From a virus (taxonomy: Duplodnaviria; Heunggongvirae; Uroviricota; Caudoviricetes), in IMG/VR virus record IMGVR_UViG_2778261707_000024: a stretch of 3,819 nucleotides of DNA; one strand, written 5' to 3'. Shown here piece by piece: positions 1,358-2,901 of this stretch. Each line of letters starts with the position of its first letter. Position 1 is the first letter of the stretch. Both the position numbers and the translations under genes were made by a program. Below the pieces are notes generated by a model. That model did not search any database. It saw only the letters and a list, made by a program, of their open reading frames with translations, and was not told the DNA's origin.

Positions 1358-1375
1358 GGCTATCACTCCGGAACG

Positions 1376-1407
1376 CGCCAGTTGCAGAATATCAACGACA
1401 ACTGGCG
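1376..1407. repeat. Inverted repeat with 9-bp stem and 14-nt loop in the exo-xis intergenic region
   Basis: CGCCAGTTG (1376-1384) is the exact reverse complement of CAACTGGCG (1399-1407). There is no flanking U-tract, so it is not a canonical intrinsic terminator. Confidence 0.4.
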
Positions 1408-1418
1408 ACGGTTGAACA

Positions 1419-1856
1419 TTAAAAATCAGCCTGACTCGGGATCAGTTTTTGCCAGATAACTGAAACGTATTTTGCCTGGTAACGGGCGTCATCAAGTGCA
1501 TTATGGCGCTCACCTTCGAATGGAATAGCCGTTCTGGCATCGAAGTCTATGGCTTTCCCCAGCTCAACGATTGTGCGTACATCGCGATCGTTGTAGTAAC
1601 GCCACGGGCAGGGGATCCCCTGCCGTTCGTATGAACGGCGCAAAATCGTGTTGTCGAAGTTGGCTCCATTTCCCCAGACCTGAACAAAAAATTCACCGGA
1701 GTTTTCGTCGATAAATTCCCGCAATTGTAACAGTGCATCATCTAACGGGATTTCATCGGTCATAATGGCAGATTGCGCTTCGCGTGATTGCTTAAGCCAC
1801 CATTTAATGGTGTCCCTCGCCGTGTGCTTTCGTGTTGTGTGCCTGCTTTTTACCAC
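1419..1856 (-). CDS. Rv2179c-like / DEDDh-type 3'-5' exonuclease domain protein, apparently N-terminally truncated (possible gene remnant)
   Basis: An Exo II-like motif (FFVQVWGNGANFDNTIL) and an Exo III-like H-x4-D motif (HNALDDARYQAKY) are present with the expected spacing. No N-terminal D-x-E (Exo I) motif exists in any reverse frame upstream before the in-frame stop at 1902-1904. Neither the GTG at 1854-1856 nor the internal ATG at 1761-1763 has a Shine-Dalgarno sequence. The stop is TAA at 1419-1421. Confidence 0.6.
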   Translation of the reverse strand: MVKSRHTTRKHTARDTIKWWLKQSREAQSAIMTDEIPLDDALLQLREFIDENSGEFFVQVWGNGANFDNTILRRSYERQGIPCPWRYYNDRDVRTIVELGKAIDFDARTAIPFEGERHNALDDARYQAKYVSVIWQKLIPSQADF

Positions 1857-1880
1857 GTCAGGCGAGGTGGTCCCCGTTAT

Positions 1881-1926
1881 TCCCCAACAACAAGGATCTT
1901 GTTAATCTGGATATCCCCAACAACAA
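1881..1926. repeat. Perfect 13-bp direct repeat TCCCCAACAACAA (1881-1893 and 1914-1926)
   Basis: Read directly from the sequence. The two copies start 33 bp apart, about three helical turns, just upstream of the cassette ORF. A third TCCCC lies at 1871-1875. Confidence 0.6.
1904..1916. repeat. Left copy of 13-bp inverted repeat (AATCTGGATATCC) bracketing the cassette
   Basis: It is the exact reverse complement of 2471-2483 (GGATATCCAGATT). The core GGATATCC is itself palindromic, and the 5-bp flanks are inverted. Confidence 0.6.
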
Positions 1927-1940
1927 TAAGAGTATTGAAT

Positions 1941-2456
1941 GTGATCGCTGAATTAACGGCAGCAATGACGGCTATTCGTGAAACCGCCCAGATTGCAAAA
2001 CTAATGAACGAGGCAAAAACTCAAGCTGAAGTAAATGCGGCTATTGGTGAACTGAACTCAAAGCTTGCATCTATTCAGCGCGAATGCGTGTCTCTCGTTG
2101 AGCTGGTGGGCACTTATCAAGAAATAAATGCTTCTCTCAAAGCTAAAATTGCAGAATTTGAAAACTTTGAGGCTCAGACGGAAGGTTATATCCTTAGCCA
2201 ACTTGAGTCGGGAACTTTTGTGTACTCGAAGGAGGTAACCGTGAACGGCGGCAGCATAATCATGCATCTTTGTCCAAAATGTTTTGGACAAAAGATAGTA
2301 TCGATACTTCAGCCATTCCCGGTTAGAGAATATGAATTTTTTCATAAAAGCAGGTGCCTGTACTGTGAAAATCAGTTTCTTATGAATAAAAATCCGGATT
2401 ACGTATCACCTCCATCTATTGAAGAGTTGGCCAGAAAACTGAACGGCAATCTGTAG
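1941..2456 (+). CDS. Hypothetical protein with N-terminal coiled coil and C-terminal CxxC-x24-CxxC zinc ribbon; opposite-strand moron gene
   Basis: Long + strand ORF ending in TAG at 2454-2456. The plausible start is GTG at 1941 (AAGAG 9 nt upstream) or ATG at 1965; the TTG at 1788 in the ORF track would overlap the exonuclease remnant and is unlikely. The product has a heptad-like helical N-terminus (AKLMNEAKTQAEVNAAIGELNSKLASIQRE...) and a CPKC...CLYC zinc ribbon. The region is visibly more A+T-rich than its flanks. I recognise no family. Confidence 0.6.
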   Translation: MIAELTAAMTAIRETAQIAKLMNEAKTQAEVNAAIGELNSKLASIQRECVSLVELVGTYQEINASLKAKIAEFENFEAQTEGYILSQLESGTFVYSKEVTVNGGSIIMHLCPKCFGQKIVSILQPFPVREYEFFHKSRCLYCENQFLMNKNPDYVSPPSIEELARKLNGNL

Positions 2457-2470
2457 ATTTTTACTGTTAT

Positions 2471-2483
2471 GGATATCCAGATT
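2471..2483. repeat. Right copy of 13-bp inverted repeat (GGATATCCAGATT) bracketing the cassette
   Basis: Exact reverse complement of 1904-1916. It lies 15 bp downstream of the cassette ORF stop. Confidence 0.6.
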
Positions 2484-2495
2484 GTTAAAGAGCAT

Positions 2496-2519
2496 GCCGG
2501 ATGCTTGCTTGTGTCCGGC
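2496..2519 (-). terminator. Candidate weak hairpin in the convergent intergenic region (possible terminator of the leftward transcript)
   Basis: GCCGGA (2496-2501) pairs with TCCGGC (2514-2519) around a 12-nt loop. On the minus-strand RNA the hairpin is followed by AUGCUCUUUAACAAU, which is only moderately U-rich. Confidence 0.25.
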
Positions 2520-2570
2520 GCGTGTGCACCACTCTCCCCCCGTGGAGGATTCCTTAATTACCAGATTTCA

Positions 2571-2801
2571 TTAGTCAGAGTTTCTTGCTAACCAGCGACG
2601 CGCGCCAGATTCGGTTTTAAACGTTTTGCTTTTGGTATACGTCATCGCGGTGAACGTGCCGTCCTGGTTGGGAAACACGCCGCACACCAGAGATTCGTTG
2701 TTGCCAAGATCAAGAGTATCCATGCTGACCTCATATCCCCTTAACGCCGGGGTAGCGGAACAAAAACCTGCTGCATAGTTAAAGTTGAACCCTGCCGTCA
2801 T
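2571..2801 (-). CDS. Small prophage early-left protein, DUF1391 (YdaF/YdfA)-like; first gene downstream of the predicted PL
   Basis: 76-codon ORF with ATG at 2799-2801 (complement) and GAGG 9 nt upstream; stop TAA at 2571-2573. From memory it resembles the small conserved proteins found just leftward of the repressor in Rac/Qin-type prophages; this was not verified by search. Confidence 0.65.
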   Translation of the reverse strand: MTAGFNFNYAAGFCSATPALRGYEVSMDTLDLGNNESLVCGVFPNQDGTFTAMTYTKSKTFKTESGARRWLARNSD

Positions 2802-2901
2802 GTTCTTACGCCTCGGGCTGGCTACTTAATCCCTGACCACTGCCGGGTAACTCTAGGTATTGCCCTGTATTGTGTGGGACGGGATGGGTTGGTATGGGAA
2901 A

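Follow-up and report, generated by a model that had tools for sequence, protein, structure and literature searches.

The closest described counterparts of the locus analysed here include Qin and Rac, two prophages of Escherichia coli K-12. Qin combines the repressor gene dicA with the series ydfA-ydfB-ydfC-DicF-dicB-ydfD and a fragment of an exonuclease gene, a layout known as the dicBF operon, which is toxic on expression (PMC5069750). In Rac, the 6.3 kb between xisR and racR hold rcbA, ralR, recT, recE, racC, ydaE, kilR, KilS, sieB, ydaF and ydaG. A third system is Sp6, a prophage of E. coli O157:H7 Sakai. We have analysed a 3,819-nucleotide stretch of Caudoviricetes DNA (IMG/VR record IMGVR_UViG_2778261707_000024; "the window" refers to this whole stretch), and in particular its region 1358-2901, between the promoter PL and the excisionase gene xis. 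The window is the left end of a copy of Sp6, and region 1358-2901 is very probably what a single deletion of 2,960 bp, formed by illegitimate recombination at a microhomology of 2 bp, has left of the Sp6 PL operon.

Several properties of Sp6 have been reported by Asadulghani et al. 2009 (PMC2669165). The passages of that paper that concern us describe defective portal, head and minor-tail functions, a repressor without a peptidase domain, and effector genes from outside the locus of enterocyte effacement (non-LEE effectors) among the cargo. An ExoVIII-type system is described there for seven Sakai prophages, Sp6 included, of which only Sp10 has it intact and Sp6 has it disrupted. The same passages report spontaneous excision, circle formation, and transfer of Sp6 to K-12 with integration at the same locus, and thereby supply the answer to whether the element excises at its att sites, a point the initial annotation of the window had left for experiment. 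They make no mention of the 2,960-bp deletion, of a loss of dicB or DicF, or of the identity of ECs_1504, the opposite-strand gene discussed below.

Positions 1-3780 of the window are 100% identical to NC_002695.2 1541767-1545546 (E. coli O157:H7 Sakai), a stretch that forms the left end of Sp6 and contains genes ECs_1501-ECs_1507. Sp6 is annotated in Sakai as a lambda-like prophage of 48.4 kb that adjoins potC. Beyond the window, the Sakai sequence continues into replication genes, ninG/rusA-type genes, Q, and lysis, terminase and head genes up to the prohead protease, within which the stretch that we fetched ends and to which our reading of the head genes extends. Structural and lysis genes thus do exist outside the window. 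This bears on the suggestion that the locus is a minimal integrative element or satellite, reduced to integration, immunity and a single piece of cargo. Within the 3.8-kb window, intact genes are indeed confined to int, xis, the immunity genes and a single cargo gene; moreover, the cro-like gene of the source copy holds an insertion sequence (IS), and the window shows nothing beyond it. However, the identical sequence in 267 complete genomes runs into the replication, Q, lysis and terminase genes of the 48.4-kb prophage, which also carries effectors, and Sp6 circularises and transfers as a prophage (PMC2669165, in the passages cited above). A satellite would be a small element devoid of replication-late, lysis and structural modules, and the Sakai-type sequence is part of something much larger. 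The minimal-element explanation is therefore refuted for Sakai-type genomes, and we consider it very unlikely for the window as well.

The deletion became apparent from a comparison with other alleles of the same prophage. A chimeric query, built so that undeleted arrangements ranked first, identified a long form of the prophage at potC in the O157-lineage strains 493/89, 4276, LSU61 and others. The gene order in 493/89 and 4276 is int, xis, exonuclease (2,472 bp), DUF1482 (ydfD-like), dicB, a spacer, the opposite-strand open reading frame (ORF), DUF1391, racR, ydaS and ydaT. The proteins of the undeleted allele are recognised by Pfam as DicB (E 1.7e-37), DUF1482 (E 3.7e-25) and a full Rv2179c-like domain (E 2.3e-67), and its spacer contains DicF (77 bits, Rfam). 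A BLAST comparison with one undeleted locus (L007) aligned window positions 1-1816 with L007 2747-4562 at 100% identity and positions 1815-3780 with L007 7521-9486 at 99.95% identity. Given that both flanks match almost perfectly, the window differs from the undeleted allele by a single deletion of 2,960 bp. The junction lies at 1816|1817 (feature 1815-1817), and the two breakpoints have 2 bp in common, the CC at 1815-1816. The lost DNA comprises exonuclease codons 1-691, DUF1482, dicB, DicF and about 190 bp past DicF. On the right, the deletion ends 124 bp upstream of the start codon of the opposite-strand gene and about 26 bp outside the conserved leader of that gene. Read from PL, the order of the undeleted allele is DUF1391, the opposite-strand cassette, DicF, dicB, DUF1482, the 823-amino-acid (aa) exonuclease, xis and int.

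The region 1358-2901 is present end to end, junction included, in 267 of 5,426 complete E. coli genomes, and the arrangement is thus not an assembly artefact. The long allele was found in ten O157-lineage genomes at ≥99.8% identity, among them 493/89 and LSU61, which we take to be early-branching O157 lineages; four non-O157 genomes share the long arrangement at 87-91% identity. This imbalance of 267 short to 10 long alleles among complete O157-lineage genomes might suggest that the compact order is the ancestral and common one, and that the longer alleles gained DNA. Against this, the exonuclease ORF of the short form is a 3' fragment with no start codon and without positions 1-46 of its domain profile, which identifies the short form as derived, independently of any tree. 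In addition, full-length exonuclease genes are widespread as neighbours of this xis (they occur, as does dicB, in relatives that share the int-xis-exonuclease module or the opposite-strand cassette), the flanks of the long and short alleles agree at 100% and 99.95%, and the long allele is the one found in 493/89 and LSU61, the strains taken to branch early. An ancestral compact order is contradicted by the logic of the gene fragment, and we attach almost no credence to it.

The junction could also have arisen by recombination between two prophages, i.e. as a module swap and not as an internal deletion. Lambdoid prophages are mosaic, O157 strains carry many similar ones, and a 661-bp module common to PhiR29-type phages has its boundary at 1833, only 16 bp from the right breakpoint. 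A swap is nevertheless very improbable in our view: one existing allele at the same chromosomal site matches both flanks almost perfectly, a single deletion is the most economical explanation, and the homology at the junction amounts to only 2 bp.

We conclude that a single deletion best accounts for the locus, and we can now compare the locus with Qin and Rac. The PL -10 hexamer and the start of xis (position 1357) are 1,545 bp apart, in agreement with the 1.5 kb estimated by the initial annotation, whose list of contents (a DUF1391 gene, an opposite-strand ORF and a truncated exonuclease) was correct, coordinates included. The yardstick of about 10 kb, taken from Rac-type prophages, was not appropriate. 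The K-12 Rac region measures 6.3 kb, and the undeleted allele of Sp6 itself spans 4.5 kb from PL to xis, is of the Qin/dicBF type, and contains, like the window, none of the Rac genes recE, recT, ralR, kilR and sieB. The undeleted Sp6 order of DUF1391 (ydfA-like), DicF, dicB, DUF1482 (ydfD-like) and exonuclease resembles Qin. It differs from Qin in having a RacR-type repressor in place of DicA, and in an opposite-strand cassette that replaces ydfB and ydfC. The window, again unlike Qin, has lost DicF, dicB and DUF1482, and an Rfam scan of the window at the gathering threshold detected no family, DicF included. Of the parts of the dicBF operon, the window retains only the ydfA-like gene and the 3' end of the exonuclease gene. 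The undeleted allele has all of them, which indicates that the ancestral state was a dicBF-type member and that the window is a deleted derivative. The likeness to Rac consists of the RacR equivalog, YdaS and the DUF1391 gene beside the repressor, and extends to the presence of an opposite-strand gene beside DUF1391, a slot that holds the exclusion gene sieB in Rac. Only the immunity module of the Sp6 left end is Rac-like, and the early-left operon is not Rac-type. The description of the locus as a heavily decayed cryptic prophage holds in part. DNA has been lost, the exonuclease is a remnant, and the prophage is defective according to the passages cited (PMC2669165), but "heavily" is too strong for this region, because one 2,960-bp deletion explains all of its shortening.

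The exonuclease remnant (1419-1816, minus strand; Pfam Rv2179c-like, E 1.2e-46) corresponds to codons 692-823 of an 823-codon gene. It covers positions 47-177 of the 177-position Rv2179c-like profile, of which the intact 493/89 protein covers positions 2-177, and in phrog_2082, an exonuclease profile of 823 positions, it aligns with positions 685-823. The intact protein reads ...KTIDLETAGG... immediately before the breakpoint, and its sequence suggests that the IDLET stretch is the first acidic catalytic motif. The exonuclease has been damaged independently by IS2 in Qin, by an internal stop in strain 4276, and by the deletion in the window; the 823-aa gene is intact in 493/89. The gene bears the annotation "exodeoxyribonuclease VIII" (window 1419-1856; L007 4165-6636), and its product has a C-terminal Rv2179c-like 3'-5' domain with a weaker match to RNase_T. 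No recT adjoins the exonuclease gene in the undeleted allele. The nuclease fold of Rac RecE differs from that of Rv2179c-like exonucleases, and for this reason we regard the ExoVIII/RecE label of this gene as doubtful.

The opposite-strand gene of the region is ECs_1504 (1941-2456, plus strand), which encodes a protein of 171 aa from a GTG start codon, with long helices at the N-terminus and a C-terminal β domain with four cysteines. Judged by its sequence profile and predicted fold, ECs_1504 is a homologue of Rip1 (ring interacting pore 1). Rip1 is a prophage-encoded single-protein defence; in the account given in passages of PMC13434031, which summarises Patel et al. 2026 Nature 651:1060, a membrane pore arises from twelve Rip1 copies that assemble around an oligomeric ring of phage portal or small terminase, and ring assembly and protection against phage are known only for the Rip1 proteins of HK446 and Pseudomonas. 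A search with a profile of 38 ECs_1504 homologues matched PDB entry 9oox, chain L (HK446 Rip1 with T6 small terminase bound), with E 6.3e-24 over residues 6-152; the single sequence matched the same chain with E 3.6e-7. The AlphaFold2 model of ECs_1504 (mean predicted local distance difference test, pLDDT, of 90.5) has helices at residues 3-23 and 28-79 and then a β-rich C-terminal domain. In a Foldseek search of the PDB, this model retrieved only 9oox_L (E 2.5e-7) and 9oox_M, with a probability of 1.0 and template modelling (TM) scores of 0.53-0.70. ECs_1504 and Rip1 (HK446 gp37) thus have in common the profile and fold homology, paired CxxC motifs that align with the solved chain, and a prophage-encoded single gene. 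In addition, tblastn links ECs_1504 to HK446, to hkaP of HK620 and to D3112/JBD-type Pseudomonas phages, and the Sp6 gene has the same placement as HK446 Rip1 and HK620 hkaP, which follow shortly after the first PL gene but face the other way.

ECs_1504, which PHROGs assigns to the family phrog_1244 (function unknown), has 109 homologues across Enterobacterales, all of them unnamed and none with a Pfam domain; the gene itself is annotated as "hypothetical protein" in every entry listed, and a literature search for ECs1504 found no report. In the alignment of 38 homologues, C111, C114, C139 and C142 are invariant, and the conserved N-terminal motif MIAEL confirms the GTG start at 1941. A longer ORF call of 222 aa (TTG at 1788; 1788-2456) crosses the deletion junction and was rejected as an artefact. 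Scans of ECs_1504 with PADLOC and NCBIfam gave no usable match, and Pfam only a sub-threshold coiled-coil match. In particular, there was no Pfam match of ECs_1504 to SieB (PF14163), a family that recognises Rac SieB itself with E 1.5e-31. The hydrophobic moment of the helices reaches 0.40-0.44 (residues 7-30 and 37-54), a moderate value that is not diagnostic of a pore helix. The coding sequence of ECs_1504 contains, at the first CxxC, a perfect inverted repeat (TTTGTCCAAAA TG TTTTGGACAAA; 2269-2292) with 11-nt arms 2 nt apart. The gene occurs in 738 of the 5,426 complete E. coli genomes, with a median of one place per carrier genome. Its ratio of nonsynonymous to synonymous substitution rates (dN/dS) is 0.14-0.19 (about 0.15) across three prophage backgrounds, which denotes purifying selection. 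The early suggestion that the retained opposite-strand cargo is under selection is plausible in light of these values and of the Rip1 homology.

The Rip1-like gene is preceded by a conserved leader of about 100 nt (1843-1940, plus strand), delimited by a cross-genus alignment. Over some ten genera, leaders are 77-91% identical to that of Sp6 and are better conserved than the coding sequences, whose products show 45-61% identity. The leader has a sharp left boundary, upstream of which the sequences cannot be aligned, and its conservation ends at the Shine-Dalgarno sequence. It contains a direct repeat, TCCCCAACAACAA, at 1881-1893 and 1914-1926, and the left core of an inverted repeat, AATCTGGATATCC, at 1904-1916. 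The right core, GGATATCCAGATT (2471-2483), is a perfect 13-nt inverted copy of AATCTGGATATCC immediately past the stop codon of the Rip1-like gene, and together with the conserved sequence GTTAAAGAGC forms a 3' handle (2471-2493, plus strand), recognised by an inverted-repeat scan and by alignment of the 3' flanks. The leader does not depend on the cargo: an exact 19-mer from it was found in at least 120 IMG/VR contigs, in 55 of which the next ORF is not Rip1-like. In 120 of 134 loci, an inverted copy with up to two mismatches follows the leader at a distance of 400-850 nt, versus 15 of 134 for an upstream control span; past this copy lies the conserved GTTAAAGAGC and then, in most loci, an intrinsic terminator.

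We counted cargo classes among the 110 loci with both arms (from loci L012-L146). A Rip1-like gene is present in 58 of them. In another 44, for example IMG/VR loci L029, L041 and L067, the arms enclose a proline-rich peptide of 26-55 aa (e.g. MSYDYEERHMPPFKRPEPPPKPDDSD) and a membrane-like protein of 148 aa (phrog_6315, unknown function); the remaining eight hold a protein of 98-151 aa without a family match. For the cargo families other than Rip1, Pfam gave no match, and PHROGs at most a family of "unknown function". From their position, the genes of these two classes are candidates for exclusion or defence genes. The first half of the leader is present exactly upstream of HK446 Rip1 and of HK620 hkaP; the HK446 locus shares this half with Sp6, but has neither the full leader nor the inverted-repeat handles. 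Two further phages are worth recording here. The early-left region of phage vB_EcoS-640R1 is Qin-like, has no Rip1-like gene and contains the first leader half (L002 18168-18199), followed by a Shine-Dalgarno sequence and a plus-strand ATG where no gene is annotated. In Klebsiella phage Kp4882-1 (L012 3001-4904), the Rip1-like gene and its leader are convergent with a RacR-like repressor gene, and cro-like and ydaT-like genes come next; the association of the cassette with RacR-type immunity regions thus extends beyond Escherichia.

One tentative reading, to which we give somewhat less than even confidence, is that the leader and the 3' handle bracket interchangeable cargo and so define a "plug-in" cassette, new to the description of lambdoid prophages, with the handles as a shared regulatory or exchange device and the other cargo as new anti-phage genes. 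A corollary would be that the Sp6 deletion spared the cassette because the cassette is under selection in O157:H7. Candidate functions of the handles are pairing between the 5' and 3' ends of the mRNA, operator pairs, and recombination handles. An Rfam search over 1780-2000 at E values up to 10 gave only chance-level matches. Neither the leader nor the 2457-2575 spacer folded better than shuffled sequences, whether from single sequences or from alignments (z -1.3, -1.7 and 0.0), and the RNAalifold energies were weak. The loci with variant arms showed no compensatory changes, and L022 and L023 carry uncompensated ones; RNA pairing is thus neither supported nor ruled out. We also considered hix-like DNA invertase sites and an element resembling a miniature inverted-repeat transposable element (MITE) as sources of the inverted repeats. 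There was no evidence for either and no recombinase nearby, in a search that did not extend to empty or inverted sites.

The remainder of the window was mapped from a six-frame ORF list with Pfam, PHROGs and NCBIfam. The integrase gene (ECs_1501; 1-1119, minus strand) encodes a lambda-type tyrosine recombinase (Pfam Arm-DNA-bind_1, E 3.8e-21; Phage_integrase, E 3.6e-18) and is 100% identical to its Sakai counterpart. The first base of the window falls at the int stop codon, and integration on the potC side was read in related complete genomes. The excisionase gene xis (ECs_1502; 1088-1357, minus strand) matches phrog_629 (E 5.2e-26) and Pfam Exc (E 7.8e-5). The DUF1391 gene (ydfA/ydaF-like; 2571-2801, minus strand; Pfam DUF1391, E 6.6e-30, 103 bits) is the first gene of the PL operon. 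The Prokaryotic Genome Annotation Pipeline (PGAP) gives it a shorter extent (2571-2723). It is 92% identical in nucleotide sequence to K-12 ydfA, and a gene of this type stands beside the repressor in Rac and Qin alike. The repressor gene ECs_1506 (3039-3515, minus strand) encodes a RacR-type protein without a peptidase domain (NCBIfam TransRepsrRacR equivalog, 246.8 bits; cutoff, 200). Divergent from it is the cro-like gene ydaS (3640-3780, plus strand; Pfam YdaS_toxin, E 2e-15, 56.7 bits), so that the RacR equivalog, a divergent YdaS and the DUF1391 gene beside the repressor together identify a Rac-type immunity region.

A promoter and palindrome scan located PL and two operators at 2902-2943 (minus strand). 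PL consists of TTGACA (2930-2925), a 17-nt spacer and TATAGT (2907-2902), with 11 of 12 matches to the consensus, and is flanked on both sides by palindromic TAGGC-N3-GCCTA operators (2906-2918 and 2931-2943). The PR promoter region (3545-3612, plus strand) has three operators within 3545-3608. The five operators observed in the window compare with 0.07 expected by chance.

The ydaS gene, which measures 324 bp when intact in Sakai, is cut after codon 47. The IS in ydaS at 3780|3781, which belongs to the IS3 family, is the difference between the source copy and Sakai Sp6. The 39 bases at 3781-3819 have no match at this position in Sakai and are the end of an IS629/IS1203-type element, an identical end of which adjoins two transposase ORFs in KU238070.1. 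The ydaS::IS junction was found in none of the 5,426 complete E. coli genomes, which indicates that the source strain has a private, further-disabled Sp6 allele.

These features suggest how the region would operate. In the lysogen, the RacR-type repressor would keep PL and PR off via the TAGGC-N3-GCCTA operators, and the Rip1-like gene would be expressed from its own leader. By homology, its product may abort superinfection through a membrane pore formed around portal or small-terminase oligomers, and ECs_1504 is accordingly named here as a candidate anti-phage gene. Upon derepression, transcription from PL would read DUF1391, the cassette in antisense, the dead exonuclease stub, xis and int, and neither of the division inhibitors DicB and DicF would be made. 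Several points weigh against this picture. Upstream of the Rip1-like gene, neither the window nor the undeleted allele has a consensus sigma-70 promoter. ECs_1504 shares only 27-28% identity with HK446 Rip1, and its identity to the homologues in Pseudomonas phages is about 30%. The window stops inside the IS (from 3781), and the late region was seen in related complete genomes and not in the source strain, in which the IS may have caused the loss of the rest of the prophage. Finally, the deletion may represent neutral decay or may have been favoured through the loss of DicB/DicF toxicity; the direction of selection on the deletion lies beyond what can be deduced from sequence.

The core finding, a short early region, is already known biology in that it reflects a lineage-specific deletion in a well-studied defective prophage. 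What we add is the base-exact deletion, the loss of dicB and DicF, the assignment of ECs_1504 to Rip1, and the cargo-independent handles of the cassette. The deletion tells apart two Sp6 alleles in O157 (267 versus 10 complete genomes) and may thus serve as a lineage marker. An O157:H7 cell contains about a dozen lambdoid prophages, including the Shiga toxin (Stx) phages. ECs_1504 is a candidate abortive-infection gene of O157:H7 that, by homology, would respond to portal or terminase rings, and such a response could matter in a cell with so many lambdoid prophages. More generally, a slot for defence genes may be recognisable by the conserved leader and trailer that enclose variable cargo, and could be used for finding new anti-phage genes.

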